Of a DNA stretch of 64,000 nt, positions 1 through 59,772 are shown in pieces (within the stretch, counting starts at the first letter, position 1; every line of letters begins with the position of its first letter). Origin of the DNA: Nitrospirales bacterium (GTDB lineage: Bacteria > Nitrospirota > Nitrospiria > Nitrospirales > UBA8639); assembly GCA_963555755.3 (NCBI GenBank), contig OY820905.2, forward strand, positions 4,384,001-4,448,000. The letters are read 5' to 3'. Under the pieces are notes generated by a model, which was not told the origin of the DNA, made no database searches, and saw nothing but the letters and a program-made list of their open reading frames with translations. A program made the translations under genes and the position numbers.

Positions 1-545
1 GCCCAATAGCGAACCGCTGTACCGTCTCGTCACCACGCTGCTGGATGACCAAGGCGCACCCGCCCAGGACCTGGCTCAACTGTATCACGAGCGCTGGGAG
101 GTGGAATTGGTGTTTGATGAGCTGAAGACGCACCTGGGGCAACGTCGTCGCGTCCTGCGCAGTAAAACGCCAGAGTTGGTGCGTCAAGAGTTCTACGGAT
201 GGGTGATGGCCCACTACGCCGTGCGCTGGTTGATGTATCAAGGGGCCACCCAGGCAGACATCCCGGACCGCACAGTATCTTTTACGGCCACGGTGCAGTT
301 AGTGCGTCGAACCCTGCCCCAATCTGGGGCCCTTCCCCCCTGAGCGCCAAAAAACATGGTATCGGCTGCTGTTTGAGGCGACGGCAAAACTGTTGTGTGA
401 ATCCAGCCGGGGAAAAATCAAGCCGAGGATGGTGAAACGCCGAAACTCTCCATACGCACCGTACAAACGCCCGAGACCGCCCGTTGCGCAAATGGACTGG
501 ACACCATCCATCAAACCACCGAAGATATCTAAGTGAACAGTATTG
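1..545 (+). mobile_element. IS4-family insertion sequence, 3' part (truncated by window start)
   Basis: Near-identical to the reverse complement of 2542-4010; ends in terminal IR ATCTAAGTGAACAGTATTG (527-545); encodes the YHERWEVELVFDELK DDE motif. Confidence 0.95.
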
Positions 546-2491: not shown

Positions 2492-2541
2492 CAATGTTTA
2501 AACATAACAAGAATCCGGGGTTAGGGTCTGGGGTCAGGTCT

Positions 2542-4010
2542 CAATACTGTTCACTTAGATATCTTCGGTGGTTTGATGGATGGTGTCCAGTCAATTTGCG
2601 CAACGGGCGGTCTCGGACGTTTGTACGGTGCGTATGGAGAGTTTCGGCGTTTCACCATCCTCGGCTTGATTTTTCCACGACTGGATTCACACAACAGTTT
2701 CGCCGTCGCCTCAAACAGCAGCCGATACCATGTTTTTTGGCGCTCAGGGGGGAAGGGCCCCAGATTGGGGCAGGGTTCGACGCACTAACTGCACCGTGGC
2801 CGTAAAAGATACCGTGCGGTCAGGGATGTCTGCCTGGGTGGCCCCTTGATACATCAACCAGCGCACGGCGTAGTGGGCCATCACCCATCCGTAGAACTCT
2901 TGACGCACCAACTCTGGCGTTTTACTGCGCAGGACGCGACGACGTTGCCTCAGGTGCGTCTTCAGCTCATCAAACACCAATTCCACCTCCCAGCGCTCGT
3001 GATACAGTTGAGCCAGGTCCTGGGCGGGTGCGCCTTGGTCATCCAGCAGCGTGGTGACGAGACGGTACAGCGGTTCGCTATTGGGCCCCTGCGGTAAGAC
3101 ATACTCAATCACCCTGATGGCGATCCCATCAATTCGCTTTCTTCTGGCGCGTTCACTGGGATACAGATGGCTCAGGTACGAGCCATCGTCCAACAGCTTG
3201 TCAACTGGAAGGATCAAGCTCTTCGGCATGCGCCAGAGTAGTTGCGCTCCGGTCTGAAGGCCGGCCTGCCAATGGGCGTACCCGACAAAGCCGCGATCGG
3301 CCATGCAGAGCATGTCGGGCGTGAGGCGACGCACCAAGGGCGCGGCCACCTCCCATTCGGCCTGCTTATAGGCCCCTAGTTCGGCATCCAAAATGGCGTG
3401 ACTGGCACATTCCGTCAAAATGGCGCACTGGGCTTGGGGGTAGCCGGCCTGCCCGGTTCGGCTCCCTGGGTACCCAAAGGCTTGCACATTGGCTTCCTCA
3501 TCCGGGACCTCAAAGTTGGAGCCATCTATCGCGACGAGTCGGTAGCCTGCAAAAAAGGCGTGGGCATGCTCTGGACGAGCCAACGGGCGCAAGCAGCGCT
3601 GTCCAATGGCTTTCAGCGCCTTCCACGTCAGCCGTGAGCGGGCTTTGCTGATGGCTGATTTGACAACGGTCACGGGAGCAACGGGTTTGTGGTCTTTCCA
3701 TGCCAGCCCTTGGGCCACAGCGGCAAACACCGCTTCGTACGCGGCCTCGCTGTATAAGCTCAACGCCATGGTGTAGTACACCACGGCAGAAGCGGGAAAG
3801 GTGCGGACACGTTCACTGTTACAATGATGTGCGTCAAGTTCTTCGTTGATGATGGCCACCGGAAAGGCACGAGCCAGTAATCCCGTGCTCAAATAATCCG
3901 CCAATCGAGCCCCCGCCCCCAAGCCGACTTTCTTTCTTGCCATGTTGCCTCCTCCCAGATTACGTGTGGAGGCGAAGTATAACAGATTTTCATCTAAGTG
4001 AACAGTATTG
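2542..4010 (-). mobile_element. IS4-family insertion sequence, complete
   Basis: IRs CAATACTGTTCACTTAGAT / ATCTAAGTGAACAGTATTG; 10-bp TSD GGTCAGGTCT (2532-2541, 4011-4020). Confidence 0.97.
2744..3943 (-). CDS. IS4-family transposase
   Basis: LVAIDGS, MADRGF and YHERWEVE..FDELK motifs; a C-terminal extension lies in the +1 frame. Confidence 0.95.
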   Translation of the reverse strand: MARKKVGLGAGARLADYLSTGLLARAFPVAIINEELDAHHCNSERVRTFPASAVVYYTMALSLYSEAAYEAVFAAVAQGLAWKDHKPVAPVTVVKSAISKARSRLTWKALKAIGQRCLRPLARPEHAHAFFAGYRLVAIDGSNFEVPDEEANVQAFGYPGSRTGQAGYPQAQCAILTECASHAILDAELGAYKQAEWEVAAPLVRRLTPDMLCMADRGFVGYAHWQAGLQTGAQLLWRMPKSLILPVDKLLDDGSYLSHLYPSERARRKRIDGIAIRVIEYVLPQGPNSEPLYRLVTTLLDDQGAPAQDLAQLYHERWEVELVFDELKTHLRQRRRVLRSKTPELVRQEFYGWVMAHYAVRWLMYQGATQADIPDRTVSFTATVQLVRRTLPQSGALPP

Positions 4011-4177
4011 GGTCAGGTCTCACATTCCTACATGCCCTGTTGTACTCAAGCCATGGCCAGCAAATTCCAGCCGTAACAGCAAATTCCAGCCGTAAAGGTT
4101 TTGCCAAGCAAAGCATGTAGGAATGTGAGAACTGACCCCTCCACAGAACTGACCCCACCACCCACCATGACCAGCAC

Positions 4178-6904: not shown

Positions 6905-7112
6905 GGTTCAGAGTTAATGAGTGACTGGTTCACGGTTTAGGGTAGACAGAGGAAGCCAAAAGGGTTTGGAACTATGTATTCGTGGCAAAAAGGCTATAAA
7001 AAAACCCAAGAAAGCCAACCCCGAACCCCGAACTTTGAACCCCGAACCCTGAACCCTGAACCCTTAACCTTGAACCCTGAACCCTGAACCCTGAACCTTG
7101 AACCTTGACCCT
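6905..7112. repeat. degenerate heptamer tandem array (AACCCTG/AACCCCG/AACCTTG) with a short inverted partner
   Basis: About 13 units at 7017-7112; GGTTCA/GGTTTAGGG units at 6905-6942. Confidence 0.9.
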
Positions 7113-7171
7113 AAGCAATTAAGTTTTTTGTTTATCCTCACCTCCTACTTTTTACCAAGGATTGCGCAATC

Positions 7172-9074: not shown

Positions 9075-9587
9075 ATGATGCCGTTAGATACTGAAGATGG
9101 AGCCAAAGCGTTACAACTGATTACCTCTCGTTATGATGCACGCGAATGGCGAAAGAAAATTGAAAAAACCTTGAGCCTACCACCGAAAGGCATGGAAGAT
9201 GACGTGCAGCGGAAAATTTTTTTGCATCTCAAGCTGGCGTTGCAAGCGTATAAATCACGACGTGCCGACGCCCCGGCTTGGGTGGTGGGCGGGTATGGCA
9301 CGAAAGAAGTCATTGATCGAGCCAAGCTTCGTCCCACGGAAATTGATCCCGCGATGACTCCAGATCAGGTGGCGTTTTTGGGGGAAGACCCTGGTTCTGA
9401 AGTTGATCAAACTTGGTGGGAAGACATGCTCGTGAAGTGGTTTGAAGAGCCTGAAGAAGAGGTGGTTGAAGCGGAAGCTTCTGATGAAGAAGGCGAAGAC
9501 GACGAAGAAGGGGAAGACGGTAAAGACGGTTCTGATACCGCTGCATCGGATTCGGATACATCCGAACCAACGAAAAAATCAACATAG
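9075..9587 (+). CDS. hypothetical protein with acidic C-terminal tail
   Basis: 170-aa ORF, AGGAG RBS. Confidence 0.85.
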   Translation: MMPLDTEDGAKALQLITSRYDAREWRKKIEKTLSLPPKGMEDDVQRKIFLHLKLALQAYKSRRADAPAWVVGGYGTKEVIDRAKLRPTEIDPAMTPDQVAFLGEDPGSEVDQTWWEDMLVKWFEEPEEEVVEAEASDEEGEDDEEGEDGKDGSDTAASDSDTSEPTKKST

Positions 9588-9751
9588 GAGTTTTGTGTCT
9601 CCCTGCCTTGTGCTCGCACGATGGGCTGGGCAATTTTTAGGTGGCTCTTTGCCTAATTGTGCGGGTACTTTTTTTTGAAGATTCCCACTCAACTTCCCCT
9701 TTCCCAAAGGGGGAGATATACAATACCCTCTCACCAATGCTTCTCCTTGAA

Positions 9752-11506
9752 CCTAGAAACCGCAGTTGGATCACAAAAGTCCGCGCAAGCTCTTAGGACC
9801 TGCGAGAAAATAACTTGATCAATCTCGCATCCAATCTTCGGGCCATCTTTGAACGGGCCTCAATCGAAAAACCCTCACCATAGCTGTGCTATGCCTCGAG
9901 TGTTTCGGATCATACAGAAATTATGGTTCTAGGAGTCGCATTCGGATCAATTGCCCAATGAGTGGCGTGAAGCTCAATCCTCGTTTTTCGAGTCCCGGCC
10001 ATTGCCGGTAGCCAAAGACAAAAGGCTCTTCGCGTCACCGGGAGGGTGAATGGGTTGAATAATTCCCCGCCTGTTCCCCCCTTGGGAAAAGGGGGGCTTG
10101 GGGGGATTTTCTGATCCGGAGCAGGCAAGTTCTGCACATTTCTTGCCTCCCACAAAGCGGGTTCCCCCGGCGTGGCTGCCGATCCAACCGAAGGGGCAAA
10201 GCGGGTGCCGGCACCAACGGCCCCCATCCTGACTCGGGGGCGGCCCTAGTCGCTCAGACAGTGCAAGCTTGGTGTGTGAGGGTATGGTTATCGTAAAATC
10301 CCCCCTCCCCCCCTTTTCCAAAGGGGGAGCCTCCCGAGCACCGCTTCCCAAGGGATGTTCTTCCATCACCTGCAGAGGAGAATCTGGCCAACCGACCGAT
10401 ACGGATTGATGAAGCCCCAGAAAAATCTAGAAACCCGGATGGCTCGCCCATGAGCTCCCTGGGGGTCTAGTGGCCACAGATGGGTCCTCTATTATTGGCA
10501 CGGGGTTCCTACAAAATTCATAGAGAACCATAAATTCTGTATGATCCAGTGTTTCCCAATCGTTCCGTCCAAATCCGACCCAAATCTTGGCGCGATATTG
10601 ATCAAGTTATTTTCTCGCAGGTCCTCAGGGTCCGTCACGAAATAACCGGGACAATTGGCCGAGACGATTTTGGAGCGAGCCAAGGAGCGAAGAGCGCGCA
10701 TACCGGGAGTATGGAAGCGATGAGCGACGCCGGCGCAGCCCAAAAGCGTCCGGCCCTCCGGGGAGGCCCATCTTTGGCCCGGGGCGGCGTTGCTCCTCGG
10801 TCACAGAGCCCCGCTAGGCTCCCTCGTCGCGCCTTGCCCCGATCACAAATCTGGGCCTCCCAATTGTCCCGGTTATTTCGTGACGGACCCTTAGCGCACC
10901 TGGCAAAATAAAAAATGTCTTATCACCACCAGGGATTACCCCCCACTCTTGTCATTTCGGGAATAAATGCCAAAAAGTGTTGGGAAAGTTACAAGGAAGT
11001 TCTTCGGTGACAACACGTTACCCTAGAAACGGCAGTTGGGCGCAAAAAAGCCGTGTAAGCTATTGGTGTGCATGGTGAAATAAAAAAAGTCGCAGTCACC
11101 TTCGTGGTGATGGGACATTTTTTTATTTTGCCAGGTGCGCCAAGAGCTTGCGCGGACTTTTGTGATCCAACTGCCGTTTCTAGGGTTACGCATCTTTGTG
11201 TTGAAAGGGTTTAACAAAGGGATGCGGTGATGAGAAAGATGACAGGTGCCTCTCACGCCAAAGTCTCATGAAGACGGCTCCTAATGCGTATTCTCGATGG
11301 TATGAGTATCTCCAACCAAGATTAAAAACCAACACTATTTGGCATTTATTCCCATTTCGACCCTTGGGAGAAATCTGTGGTTCGGCAGAAGGGAGATTTC
11401 TCCCAAGGGTCGAAATGACAGACCCGAGGTGACCACGACTTTTTTTATTTCACCATGCACACCAATAGCTTACACGGCTTTTTTGCGCCCAACTGCCGTT
11501 TCTAGG
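9752..11506. mobile_element. nested MITE stack B[C[N], D, I[J[B]]]
   Basis: Outer B flanked by TTGAA/TTAAA; C 9796-10624; N 9907-10547 (8-bp TSD AGTGTTTC); D 10628-10890; I ~10950-11420; J 10959-11353 (TSD ATTTC); inner B 11022-11184 (TSD GTTAC). Confidence 0.85.
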
Positions 11507-11569: not shown

Positions 11570-11906
11570 TATTGAATAATAGGCAAATCTTAAAAATTCC
11601 GTTCACCTGTGACTTATCTTATGAAATGCCGAGAGCAACAGGGGATGTTCAAAAAGGTGCGCTCAGCCAGATGGTCTCCAGGCTTCCCATCTGACTTTCC
11701 CAGGGGCTCTGCCCCTAGGACGGCCCAAACAGCAGGGCCTGTGACCCCTCGAAGGGGGAACACCCCCTTCGAACATCCCCCCCACCGAGTGGTACTGACT
11801 ACTCGGTGGGCAAGGCCGCAGGCGCTTTGGCGCGCGGAGCGTACGGGCGAGTACGTGAGCACGACAAAGGGCCGAGAACGCCGCTGACGCCCTTTTTCAA
11901 CATCCC
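11570..11906 (+). mobile_element. long-form MITE A carrying a multi-hairpin insert
   Basis: A leader plus A core interrupted at CAGC^AAGG by about 140 bp (11668-11810). Confidence 0.75.
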
Positions 11907-12515
11907 TTAGAAAAAATCCATTTGAACCGGTTTGGCCGTAGACGGCGAAGGCTGGCTGTCTTCTTTGGACATGTCATCCAGAATCTGTTTGAGCTTTTGA
12001 AAGTCTTCGCGGAGCGGGGTCATGAGATTTCCCTGGTGCAGGGCGGCGGCTGGATGCAATAAAGGGAAGAGAATAAAGTCGGACAACCGAAATATTTGGC
12101 CGCGAACTTTGGTAATTCCAATTTTTCTTTCCAGCAATGTCTGCATGGCAAAGTTTCCGAGCGAGCACACCAGCTTGGGTTTGATGATCTGAATCTGCTG
12201 AAGCAAAAATGGTTTGCAGGTCTCGATTTCATCCGCTTGGGGATTGCGGTTATTGGGAGGCCGGCATTTGATGACATTGGCAATGTAAATTTCGGCACGA
12301 GACAGTCCGACGGATTCGAGCAGTTCCGTCAATAACTTCCCCGCCGCCCCCACAAACGGAACTCCCTGTTTGTCTTCATAAAATCCCGGGGCTTCGCCCA
12401 CAAACATTATAGACGCGTGCGGATTGCCCGTTCCAAAGACAACCTGTGTGCGCCCTGATTCAAGCCGACAAGCCTGGCATTCGCGTAATGATTGATCTAA
12501 TTCATCGAGATTCAT
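11907..12515 (-). CDS. udg: uracil-DNA glycosylase, family 4
   Basis: CQACRL, VGEAPG, KCRPP and HPAA motifs. Confidence 0.95.
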   Translation of the reverse strand: MNLDELDQSLRECQACRLESGRTQVVFGTGNPHASIMFVGEAPGFYEDKQGVPFVGAAGKLLTELLESVGLSRAEIYIANVIKCRPPNNRNPQADEIETCKPFLLQQIQIIKPKLVCSLGNFAMQTLLERKIGITKVRGQIFRLSDFILFPLLHPAAALHQGNLMTPLREDFQKLKQILDDMSKEDSQPSPSTAKPVQMDFF

Positions 12516-37566: not shown

Positions 37567-37699
37567 CAGACGTGATGCGTGAAGCGTGATCCGTGAAGCG
37601 TAGGGGGGGACGATTTTCCTATATTTACGCATCACGCATTACGTATCACGGGTCACGATTTTTGAACAACCACTGTTGCTATGAAGACGAGGAGTTTCC

Positions 37700-51150: not shown

Positions 51151-51334
51151 GAGCAGGACGGAGGGGGGAAATGAAGAGTGAAAAATGAAAAATGAAAAAT
51201 GAAGAGTGAAAAATGAAAAATGAAGAGTGAAAAATGAAAAATTATTACCTTTCGGTACGCATTACGTATCACGCTTCACGTATAAGGATGTCGAATTATT
51301 CAACAGTCCCAATCATTGTGAATGAGGAGAAGCT

Positions 51335-53558: not shown

Positions 53559-54288
53559 GGACCTGAGAGAAAATACCTTGGACATCTCGCATCCAAAACA
53601 TAGCTGTACTATGCCTCGGGTGTTTTTCAACCTAGAAACAGCAGTTGGATCACAAAAGTCCGCACAAGCTCTCAGGGTCCGTCACGAAATAACCGGGACA
53701 ATTGGCCGAGACGATTTTGGAGCGAGGCAAGGAGCGAAGAGCGCGCATACCGGGAGTATGGAAGCGATGAGCGACGCCGGCGGAGCCCAAAAGCGTCCGG
53801 CCCTCCGGGGAGGCCCATCTTTGGCCCGGGGCGGCGTTGCTCCTCGGTCACAGAGCCCCGCTCTGCTCCCTCGTCGCGCCTTGCCCCGATCACAAATCTG
53901 GGCCTCCCAATTGTCCCGGTTATTTCGTGACGGACCCTTAGCGCACCTGATAAAAGACAAAAAGGTCTCATCACCACTAAGGGTTCGCGCAACAATAACT
54001 TTCCCTGTTTGGGTGCTGAGACACCTGTCTGGCAAGGCGCGAGGACTGCGCATACTCCTCGTATGGAAAGGACGAGCAACGCCGCCAGACGGGATGGATC
54101 GACGCCCAAACAGGGAAAATTATTGTTGCGCGAGCCCTAAGGTGACCACGACGTTTTGTCTTTCACCATGCACCCCAATAGCTCGCACGGCTTTTTTGCG
54201 CCCAACTGCAGTTTCTAGGTCCAATCGTTCCGTCCAAATCCAACCCAAATCTTGGCGCGATATGTCCAAGGTATTTTCTCTCAGGTCC
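53559..54288. mobile_element. nested MITE stack C[B[D,F]]
   Basis: B 53631-54219 (TTCAA/TCCAA); D 53675-53937; F 53981-54137 (TSD TAA). Confidence 0.88.
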
Positions 54289-58258: not shown

Positions 58259-59597
58259 ACGATTTGAAGCATTAACTCTTCAGGAAGCATTTTTCGCCGT
58301 GAAAGCCGAATTGGGCTCGGATGCCGTGATCGTCTCGACCCGGCGTATCAATAAAGGTGGAGGTTTTCTTGGGTTGCTCAGTCAACCCATGATTGAAGTC
58401 ACGGCTGCGGTTGATCGAGGGGTGGTGGCCAAAGAACCTGCCAAAGAACTTGCCAAAGAACCTGATCATCGCCAACGCCGGTCACAGGAAACAGTGATGC
58501 CAACCGTTGAACCGGAAACGGTTTCGTCGTGGTATGAACCCCCCATCGAAGCCCAGCAGAGGCAGGCCCCCTCTTTTGGTGAACATCTGAAAGTGGCGGC
58601 GTTACTCGACCCGGTAAGCCAACAGCTCGCCGCCCTCCGTGAGGAAATGAAAGAGTTACGAAGTGTACGGTCTGAGGCCGATACCGGAATTGGTCCCCTT
58701 CGTCAGGAACTCGAAACGTTCCGCACGTTCATGGGAGACATGCTGGCGGATCGGGCATCACAACGGTTGGCTTCGCTTCCGAAAGATCTGAGGGCCTACC
58801 ATGAAGTCCTCGTGACTGCAGGAATTACCCCTTCCCTGGCTGCCAATCTTGTGCGGACGGTTGGGGAAACCCTCGGAACAGGGGAGGGCATTCGGGACGA
58901 AACCGTGGCGGAATTATTGCGGGAGCAAATGGAGAAGGCCATTTCGGTGTCCGGTCCTTTGGCGACACCTGGCGGTTTGCAAAAAGTCGTCATGCTCGTG
59001 GGGCCTACTGGAGTCGGGAAAACCACGACCATTGCTAAACTCGCCAGTCAGTTCACGCAAGGACCCATGCGGATGAAAACTGTCGTGGTGACATTGGATA
59101 CGTATCGAGTGGCCGCTGTCGAACAACTTCGAGTCTATGCTCGAATCTTGAAAGTTCCCGTTGAAGTAGCCGTGACACCAGAGGAATTGCCGGCTTGCGT
59201 GGCTCGGCATCCGGATGCCGGGTTGGTGCTGGTTGATACGGCTGGCCGCAGTCCGCGTGATCCGGCAGGGGCACGAGAACTGGCGGCGATTGCGGAACAA
59301 AAAATGGCACTCGAAACCCATTTAGTGCTGTCTGCGCCCACAGACTTGGCCGTGCAAGAAGATATTGTGCGTCGGTATAGCAGCATCCCCGTGCATCGAT
59401 TGTTGCTCACAAAACTCGATGAAATGCCCCAATTGGGCCGCTTATTCAATTTGATTCATCAAACCGGGCTTCCGCTGTCGTATCTGTCCATGGGACAACG
59501 GGTTCCAGAAGATTTGGAACAAGCGACGCGAAAATCCATCGTGGATCGAATCGACCTGTTTTCCGCATGGGAGCAGGTGTCAGCGAAAGTCGCGTAA
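58248..59597 (+). CDS. flhF: SRP-type GTPase FlhF
   Basis: GPTGVGKTTTIAKLA, DTAG, TKLDE and GQRVPED motifs. Confidence 0.95.
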   Translation: MKLKRFEALTLQEAFFAVKAELGSDAVIVSTRRINKGGGFLGLLSQPMIEVTAAVDRGVVAKEPAKELAKEPDHRQRRSQETVMPTVEPETVSSWYEPPIEAQQRQAPSFGEHLKVAALLDPVSQQLAALREEMKELRSVRSEADTGIGPLRQELETFRTFMGDMLADRASQRLASLPKDLRAYHEVLVTAGITPSLAANLVRTVGETLGTGEGIRDETVAELLREQMEKAISVSGPLATPGGLQKVVMLVGPTGVGKTTTIAKLASQFTQGPMRMKTVVVTLDTYRVAAVEQLRVYARILKVPVEVAVTPEELPACVARHPDAGLVLVDTAGRSPRDPAGARELAAIAEQKMALETHLVLSAPTDLAVQEDIVRRYSSIPVHRLLLTKLDEMPQLGRLFNLIHQTGLPLSYLSMGQRVPEDLEQATRKSIVDRIDLFSAWEQVSAKVA

Positions 59598-59727
59598 TGC
59601 GTGAAGCGTGAAGCGTCATGCGTGAAGGGTAAAGGGAGAAACACTGTGGTATCTTTTTTTACGCATGACGCATGACGCATCACGCATGACGCATCACGCA
59701 TGACGCATCACGCATGACGCATCACGA
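59592..59727. repeat. inverted heptamer arrays (GCGTGAA ... ACGCATC/ACGCATG)
   Basis: Same type at ~37570-37658, 38005-38146, 42737-42820, 51761-51883 and 53155-53278. Confidence 0.9.
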
Positions 59728-59772
59728 CTTCGCAGTGAGTACATCAACGTTTGATTTATAAGGACACACACC

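Follow-up and report, generated by a model that had tools for sequence, protein, structure and literature searches.

Members of the short repeat family B in this Nitrospirales genome serve as carriers: sister genomes show them acquiring or shedding passengers at set positions while staying in place. C, D, E and F are passengers whose entry into B copies already in place is confined to fixed sites and does not take the form of ordinary insertions that duplicate the host target. One such carrier forms the outer layer of a nested repeat stack in the window, i.e. the whole stretch of 64,000 nucleotides that was analysed. Nested repeats are usually read as successive insertions, a reading that fails for half of the layers here. 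Unusual junction letters of the donor accompany the cargo, and its orientation never flips; for these reasons we favour, with a probability of about one half, the reading in which passengers are copied from a loaded paralogue elsewhere in the genome rather than arriving by ordinary jumping.

Anatomy and genomic context of the stack

The stack comprises seven elements of six families at four levels, arranged as B[C[N],D,I[J[B]]] over 1,755 bp (9752-11506), and its exact junctions are given in Table 1. The nested stack is real, and every junction lies where the initial annotation had put it. The description of a four-level Russian-doll stack of six families was thus borne out: the junctions were read directly, and in-silico excision of the inserts restores B, leaving a 160-nt copy that differs from the inner 163-nt B by 6 mismatches and 3 gap columns. 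A duplication had also been assigned to each insert. Those of N (AGTGTTTC), J (ATTTC) and the inner B (GTTAC) are true target duplications. The T.A duplication is not, since the trimers around C and D (TTA, TCA and TTA) are unequal and are not host letters, and for I we observed a 2-nt ambiguity only.

Table 1. Elements of the nested stack, its neighbouring genes and a second composite in the window.
Feature	Position	Strand	Description
Outer B MITE	9752-11506	+	163-bp family, ends CCTAG, flanks TTGAA / TTAAA
Outer B pieces	9752-9795, 10894-10928, 11424-11506	+	three segments, 1,755 bp overall
C MITE	9796-10624	+	occupies B site 1, interrupted by N; 180 bp with terminal repeats of 28 bp
N element	9907-10547	+	641 bp, ends GGATCATACAGAA, 8-bp duplication AGTGTTTC
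AGTGTTTC duplication of N	9899-9906 and 10548-10555	+	8 bp, true
TCA trimer	10625-10627	+	separates C from D
D MITE	10628-10890	+	263 bp with terminal repeats of 35 bp; folds into a strong hairpin; shares B site 1 with C as a tandem
TTA trimer	10891-10893	+	directly after D
I, TGTC-type REP dimer with short flanks	10929-11423	+	lies in the apex loop of the B hairpin (site 2), without duplication
J MITE	10959-11353	+	227 bp when empty, ends GGGAATAAATGCCAAA, inside a REP arm
ATTTC duplication of J	10954-10958 and 11354-11358	+	5 bp, true
Inner B, intact	11022-11184	-	between two GTTAC
GTTAC duplication of inner B	11017-11021 and 11185-11189		5 bp, true
Left neighbour gene	9075-9587	+	conserved 170-aa protein, no Pfam match, 3' end towards the stack
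Right neighbour gene	11907-12515	-	uracil-DNA glycosylase (udg), 3' end towards the stack
Composite C[B[D,E]]	53559-54288	+	in G005 and G006 both sites of its B are empty

The stack is located between the 3' ends of two convergent genes, the 170-aa gene and udg. A genome-wide BLAST of the region gave blocks of 90-240 matches alternating with low-copy blocks, with sharp common edges, and the intergenic region shrinks from 2,319 bp to 293 bp once all parsed elements are removed. The same interval measures 38 bp in the relative G004 and 822-1,107 bp, with an extra ORF, in G002, G003 and G010; B, C, D, N, I and J are absent from it in all four genomes. The extra ORF (L013, L014 and L018) encodes 189-214 aa and is acyltransferase-like by eye. 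It is missing from this interval in the present genome (G000) and in G004, and its best G000 match (~49-52% identity) lies elsewhere. None of the three ORFs of 100 aa or more scanned over the stack matched Pfam, Rfam gave no match in the window, and promoter and terminator scans of the region remained at shuffle level (1 vs 1.4 and 4 vs 3.7, respectively).

Further repeats were observed in and around the stack. N holds an inverted pair (10075-10111 and 10295-10328) of a second REP-like repeat of the poly-C/poly-G hairpin type, which has dozens of arms in the genome and a similar arm just left of the stack (~9690-9716). Beside the stack, an A-family element (11641-11908) carries a 144-bp insert (11666-11809); all six genome copies of this insert occupy the same A junction in the same orientation, forming another stereotyped composite. 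Elsewhere in the window, an IS1595-family element with ~40 genome copies (1210-2250) lies between two inverted IS4a copies (1-545 and ~2516-4020). A truncated 53-codon fragment beside an IS4 copy (588-752) presumably resembles the start of a Y1 tyrosine transposase. Short intergenic arrays of 7-bp tandem repeats (AACCCTG, ACGCATC and GTGAAGC types) were found at 6990-7120, 37570-37660, 51170-51290, 59590-59730 and other positions.

Repeat census and origin of the B family

B, C, D, N and J are short, have terminal inverted repeats and contain no transposase gene, as is characteristic of MITEs. The genome contains 119 parsed copies of B, 105 of C, 38 of D and two of J, counted with a parser that used 24 library entries and near-full-length copies only, 66 partial B chains being excluded. 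N occurs elsewhere as two intact and two partly matching copies in other contexts (all four hits), and REP I has ~330 arms. Iterative excision yielded 780 top-level elements, of which 95 are nested; three cases reach depth 4, and the present stack, with its seven elements, is the largest. Approximately 44% of the parsed B copies (52/119) are loaded with other elements at two fixed sites. MITE-sized elements cover ~13% of the crude non-coding DNA, and the genome holds 309 multi-copy segments of 700 bp or more.

The flanks of 43 of the 64 intact B copies match over 5 bp, and the target of B in unique DNA is TTNAA (TTGAA and TTCAA 13 times each). The 8-bp duplications match in both N copies and in 12/17 copies of its sister family N2, while that of J is 5 bp; in the empty targets of B, N and J the duplicated letters are present once.

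The IS1380 family is characterised by CC-tipped inverted repeats and a 4-5 bp duplication. The B ends match, within 2-4 of 18 letters, those of an element of 1,637 bp that encodes an IS1380-like transposase of 523 aa. Both ends of this element were seen in 16/51 loci; at these 16 loci the ends read CCTA[AGT]AAACGGCAGT. The best NCBIfam match of the transposase is NF033539 (E = 9e-33), at 113.5 bits under the curated cut-off of 180. Judging from these ends, B probably derives from an IS1380-like element. Matching 5-bp flanks accompany only 4 of the 16 both-end loci, yet nearly all fit NTNAN; the mismatch would reflect either assembly chimerism or a property of the group.

The statement that the window contains no matching transposase holds, and in the case of B and J it can be widened to the genome within the reach of the queries: the parent of B was not found in G000 with the query used, and for the transposase of J only IS256-type matches of 32-33% were obtained. 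For C, D and N, searches of G000, of 115 genomes of the family and 401 of the phylum, and of viral contigs and plasmids gave no partner. Several candidates were rejected. The two transposase genes of the window that were checked, those of the IS1595 (1276-2220) and of the IS4a copy (~2516-4020), belong to elements with different ends, which also excludes the former as the partner of N, both having 8-bp duplications. ISNCY-type elements have only the inner CTGAGAGAAAA in common with C, with other tips and a TA target. Among the long G000 elements bounded by B, C or N ends, the three examined turned out to consist of MITE ends enclosing something unrelated, namely an IS110, an IS1634 or a group II intron. 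At one locus (L033, G000 C1:4584715-4587056), the reverse transcriptase of a group II intron is located between N-type ends that have an 8-bp duplication.

One-off layers and nesting preference

Two layers of the stack are ordinary one-off insertions with true target duplications, namely N into C and B into J. Each occurs once: sister C copies at B site 1 have AGTGTTTC a single time, and the other J copy has a single GTTAC. These layers require nothing beyond chance and tolerance.

The initial annotation had suggested that the elements preferentially target each other or survive within one another as safe havens, a reading that is partly supported as a whole. Raw nesting exceeds target-motif availability for B, C, D, E and F (for D 30/38, p = 2e-28). 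The 142 nested copies reduce to only 29 site and orientation classes, a lower bound on the number of events, and none of these lies above availability at p < 0.05 under a crude longest-ORF gene model with 83% coding DNA. Therefore, apart from J, no special preference is required for a family to enter another for the first time, and the excess is due to a few composites spreading. N shows no preferential targeting, its sister family N2 being nested in 0/17 cases, and targeting holds firmly for J into REP I only (2/2 copies and 19/20 family loci). In its plain sense the safe haven is supported, since root insertions are depleted in crude coding DNA (B 37/98 against 0.79 expected; H 20/115 against 0.82) and the stack sits between convergent gene ends.

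Targeting of REP I by J and its IS256-like parent

J is a miniature of a 1,080-bp IS256-like element with matching ends. The parent encodes a 302-aa Zn-finger/HTH/DDE protein that is closest to IS1249 and the IS256 Zn variant, and it matches Pfam Transposase_mut with 25.7 bits, over the cut-off of 21. Its whole-protein scores are below the respective cut-offs (126 vs 300 for IS1249, 104.6 vs 150 for the Zn variant and 40 vs 150 for IS256). D90, D145, C166, H169 and E268 are invariant in four sequences, and we take them to be the Mutator-type DDE residues with the CxxH pair. The IS256 family produces duplications of 8-9 bp; those of the J family are 5 bp (ATTCC, ATTTC, GGAAT, AGGAT and GAAAT).

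Both J copies in the genome (2/2) interrupt the REP directly behind TGTCATTTC; the two are oppositely oriented and lie in different variants of the REP, and only 418 of the 15,260 ATTTC sites in G000 follow GTC. Among 20 J-family loci, found with the J sequence alone in 8 of 115 family genomes (related and thus not independent, seven being from one genome), 19 lie in TGTCAT REPs with the REP tag at one end, and the twentieth has REP-interior letters at both ends. Three metagenome J elements agree and were left uncounted, having been chosen by a pattern containing the REP. The J family truly targets the TGTC REP at one point, and the REP is restored upon excision (type 1 of PMC1525189).

The target itself, I, has the TGTC tag, a stem starting with AT, an inverted-dimer arrangement and many extragenic copies, as do the CGTC/TGTC REPs, an assignment made apart from the stem and loop lengths of REP families 1-4. 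No RAYT (Y1) gene flanked by I REPs was found: within 800 bp of the 17 PF01797 matches, I arms are lacking in 16 cases and one has a single arm. The same junction of I with B is found in nine B copies.

Insertion sites, orientation and flanks of the passengers

The inserts in B are nearly all found at two places, ~41-54 (C, D and F) and 78-86 (E and I). Their orientation is fixed, with D in B 30/30, E 27/27, F 15/15 and C 11/11, while B in C is oriented alike in 16/17. At the empty site 1, 77/78 left arms read TTG and none reads TNA. Loaded arms carry TTA or TCA in 39/40, with TTA before C in 21/21 and, before D, TCA 10 times, TTA 8 times and TTG once. As the empty arms read TTG and the loaded arms TTA or TCA, T.A is not a host duplication. 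The same applies at the stack, where the flanks of C and D are not a duplication of the host target and the empty orthologue has TTG. In unique DNA, matched trimers accompany C in 57/86 (TTA/TTA 36 and TAA/TAA 19 times) and E in 85/151 cases. The targets of the C and D elements are T[AT]A, with the bases C and G favoured outside, as measured for C.

The passengers are young and closely similar to each other, unlike their hosts. The 101-bp C-TCA-D junction is 100% identical at two other loci, three in all, with different B haplotypes. The divergence of D is 2.1% on hosts 7.8% apart and that of C 2.4% vs 7.1%, the hosts being near the family average. C copies at B site 1 cluster on the C tree (7 changes vs 17.9 when shuffled, 0 of 500), and the C of the stack is a member of the sole C haplotype found in B. 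On the B tree, by contrast, loaded copies are dispersed (28 changes for D vs 27.3 shuffled), although this tree carries signal for in-C status (8 changes vs 16.4, 0 of 500). The TGGAA flank occurs in 1/86 empty C, yet accompanies B on five unlike C hosts.

Other flanks resemble the host. One D-like insert retains the host TTG at its left, and E and F often have a host-like flank on one side (GGA/TAA for E). In loaded B, host diversity is lowered in the nine bases left of site 1 (0.037 vs 0.098, p = 0.003); among the nine windows tested, a second low-diversity window (87-110, p = 0.01) is far from site 1. In neither B nor C does linkage weaken as distance grows (permutation p = 0.75 and 0.84, respectively), so that plain long-tract crossing-over receives no support. 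Under coupling-sequence integration by a tyrosine recombinase, one flank would equal the empty target and the other would come from the donor. When the flanks of B were compared with empty sites, 0/8 mismatched cases had exactly one flank equal to the target and in 4/13 all three were equal; three rows of this comparison hit paralogous C copies, and it included one E case and no C or D case. Tandems of E-E, E-C, E-H and E-D share one trimer (G000 C1:1222941-1223257, 895777, 4408351 and 2784935), because the ends are GG...CC and insertion at CTNAG recreates the site at both junctions.

Orthologous loci in sister genomes

A total of 120 loci around B ends was fetched from G005 and G006 (60 of the 72 and 60 of the 77 matches listed, respectively). 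Among 132 distinct B ends, 58 were unplaceable and 74 were placed, 56 at positions without B in G000 and 18 (15 loci) at positions with B. Three of these 15 loci were uninformative. Eight of the 12 informative loci differ in cargo at the stereotyped sites, three agree and one differs by another insertion. At the stack, the outer B of G006 (L367) follows the same TTGAA, and its unoccupied site 1 reads TTG; only G006 informs here, and as its contig ends 50 bp inside B, the comparison covers site 1 and not site 2 (I).

A second composite in the window (53559-54288) provides the polarity of the change, which rests on this one locus. G005 and G006 are empty (TTG and AAA), and G000 has TCA-D-TTA and TAA-E-TAA; both relatives share private host letters with G000. 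Since the closer G005 and the farther G006 (median flank identity to G000 95.4% and 88.3%) are both empty, a gain in the G000 lineage is the simplest reading. Host markers are kept 10 bp left of D and ~10 bp to the right. Donor-type junction letters are thus seen on an unmoved B with recipient markers on either side, the pattern by which gene conversion between repeat copies is recognised. G005 and G006 are fragmented (~400 contigs, 64% and 82% complete), and a loaded copy could collapse onto the empty majority. B[C], B[D] and C[B] are present in both.

Origin of the passengers

According to the favoured reading, copying from a loaded paralogue, each of the composites B[D], B[C,D], B[E], B[F], B[I] and C[B] would go back to a single ordinary insertion or a small number of them. 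When another copy is broken at the site or beside it, repair templated by a loaded paralogue would then bring in the cargo in donor orientation with donor trimers and leave host markers ~10 bp away in place, while repair on an empty paralogue would remove the cargo and restore TTG. A passenger transposase or cleavage of the hairpin may make the break. The resident B of the stack likely received the C-D pair and REP I in place by homology-guided copying from a loaded B; afterwards N and the second B would have entered as one-off insertions, each leaving a true duplication, and J would have inserted into the kind of REP in which its family resides. A loaded B likely also moves as a unit by the transposase of B. 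The pile likely persists between the convergent gene ends, where added DNA disrupts no gene.

Linkage without decay, the short tracts, the distant second window of low diversity, the searches that gave no partner transposase for C, D or N, the single polarised locus and the fragmented relatives weigh against copying. Tracts of ~10-20 bp are short for RecA-type exchange. The one-sided host-like flanks also weigh against it, as a site-specific enzyme would give them too. Mismatched flanks produced by recombination between copies have a precedent in ISRm22 (PMC1525189).

A less probable but viable explanation is that an enzyme of their own drives C, D, E and F into the B site in one orientation and rewrites the three-base overlap. 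The site would be read from the B sequence or hairpin, the coupling bases would come from the donor element, and a loaded donor copy would be unneeded. The fixed site and orientation fit this explanation, as do the in-place gain with almost no co-conversion, the 33/38 intact D copies found in or beside B arms and the one-sided host-like flanks of E, F and the D-like insert. On the other hand, matched trimers prevail in unique DNA, no mismatched B case had exactly one flank equal to the target, and no enzyme was found. The C-D pair arrives whole with its identical odd junction, and the mutated TGGAA flank rides with B, both of which point to copying of donor junctions. In its broader form, which we hold only tentatively, B would be a reusable carrier with docking sites at which MITEs home in one orientation and rewrite three target bases, alongside an undescribed IS256-like group that targets TGTC REPs with 5-bp duplications; gene-less elements would then spread from copy to copy although the genome encodes no nuclease or transposase belonging to them.

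Ordinary transposition combined with selection is considered rather unlikely as the general explanation. Here, a B allele mutated to CTTAG would have received passengers with a normal duplication, the loaded B would have spread under intergenic safety, and cargo differences between orthologues would be independent events of mutation followed by insertion, or losses. This agrees with site classes within motif availability, the depletion of insertions in coding DNA, the mostly matched 5-bp flanks of loaded B at unique loci, the E at 53559-54288, which requires only AAA to TAA, and the occurrence of B[C], B[D] and C[B] in G005 and G006 as well. It does not account for the lack of TNA among 78 empty B, the single orientation, or the loaded hosts, which match the empty ones in diversity and are dispersed over the tree. 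The 8/12 informative orthologous B that differ in cargo without having moved also stand against it, and the change from TTG to TCA...TTA demands several changes at one junction with nearby letters kept. Ordinary transposition explains the one-off layers and perhaps E, but not the missing TNA empties.

A repeat-induced misassembly of the stack is very unlikely: no single read or contig spanning it was seen in public runs and several junctions fall below the bridging rule of 31 letters on each side, but three exact target duplications have targets that are single in sister copies, the B-I and J-I junctions are bridged by single-copy-depth contigs from public runs of two studies (one perhaps the source sample), the genome consists of two contigs without the letter N, and the left end of the outer B is at the same place in G006. 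The B-I junction is bridged in run X15 by 48 and 60 letters on its two sides at a depth of 132, vs 136 for single copy, and J-I by contigs of runs X17 and X19. Short of the rule were J-B (30 and 28 letters), I-J (78 and 30) and flank-B (24 letters inside), among rows that did not list the N junctions. In run X16, one contig leads from the left end of N into 1.7 kb of other sequence, which hints at an absence of N there; it was not used.

Implications and comparison with known systems

MITEs, REP-targeting IS and mixed intergenic repeat clusters are already known, and the in-place exchange of cargo is an unexplained process. Through orthologous loci, repeat-to-repeat exchange in a bacterium becomes countable. 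The results also carry a warning, as nested copies are unsafe for dating or counting insertions (142 copies reduce to 29 site classes). An exchange directed by an enzyme would represent a novel form of homing, whereas an exchange by repair would be very short-tract copying of cassettes of 160-450 bp. The parent of J extends strict REP targeting to the IS256-like group and provides a compact (1.08 kb) site-preferring transposase.

Like the bacterial MITEs RUP, Correia/NEMIS, ERIC, Nezha, Chunjie and QMITE (PMC10969869, PMC3184786 and PMC3733652), the present elements fall within 70-300 bp and have terminal inverted repeats. They are also alike in the lack of coding capacity, the hairpin fold, the intergenic location, the flanking duplications and, for B and J, ends in common with an autonomous IS. 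Unlike in those families, 52/119 B copies here carry elements at two fixed sites, with cargo changing in place; the word 'nested' is absent from the main texts of two MITE reviews. The parent of B resembles the IS1380 family in its CC ends and 5-bp AT-rich duplications and differs from it in its profile score (113.5 < 180).

REPs are known targets of ISPsy8 (IS3), ISPa11, ISPpu9/10, ISRm19 (IS110) and ISRm22 (IS4), according to PMC1525189, where ISRm5 (IS256) is found near REPs only (type 2). J and its 1.08-kb parent insert at one REP point, like ISPsy8, ISPpu9/10 and ISRm22 (PMC1525189). The parent differs in being IS256/IS1249-like with a 5-bp duplication and in breaking the REP itself (type 1, whereas ISRm5 is type 2); it further differs in its TGTC-type REP target, used in both orientations. 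IS1111 inserts into the REP of Coxiella QMITE2 (PMC5896051), and the REP I inside the MITE B parallels that landing site. As in the CGTC/TGTC REPs described in PMC3733652, I begins with TGTC, has a stem starting with AT and forms an inverted dimer. The same source describes REP dimers inside longer palindromes and the mosaic intergenic regions of Neisseria, where dRS3 occurs with other repeats. I differs from the CGTC/TGTC REPs in having no linked tyrosine transposase and in its host palindrome, an IS1380-type MITE.

In a literature search that left aside most subscription papers, no bacterial description of in-place MITE cargo exchange or of an IS256-like REP breaker was found. Plant MITE multimers are reported to contain MITEs nested in MITEs, as here, and are eukaryotic. 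In Drosophila, gap repair after transposon excision and P-element replacement proceed by template-directed refilling from an ectopic copy. That system is likewise eukaryotic, whereas here the copying would act on passengers inside a 163-bp carrier in a bacterium.
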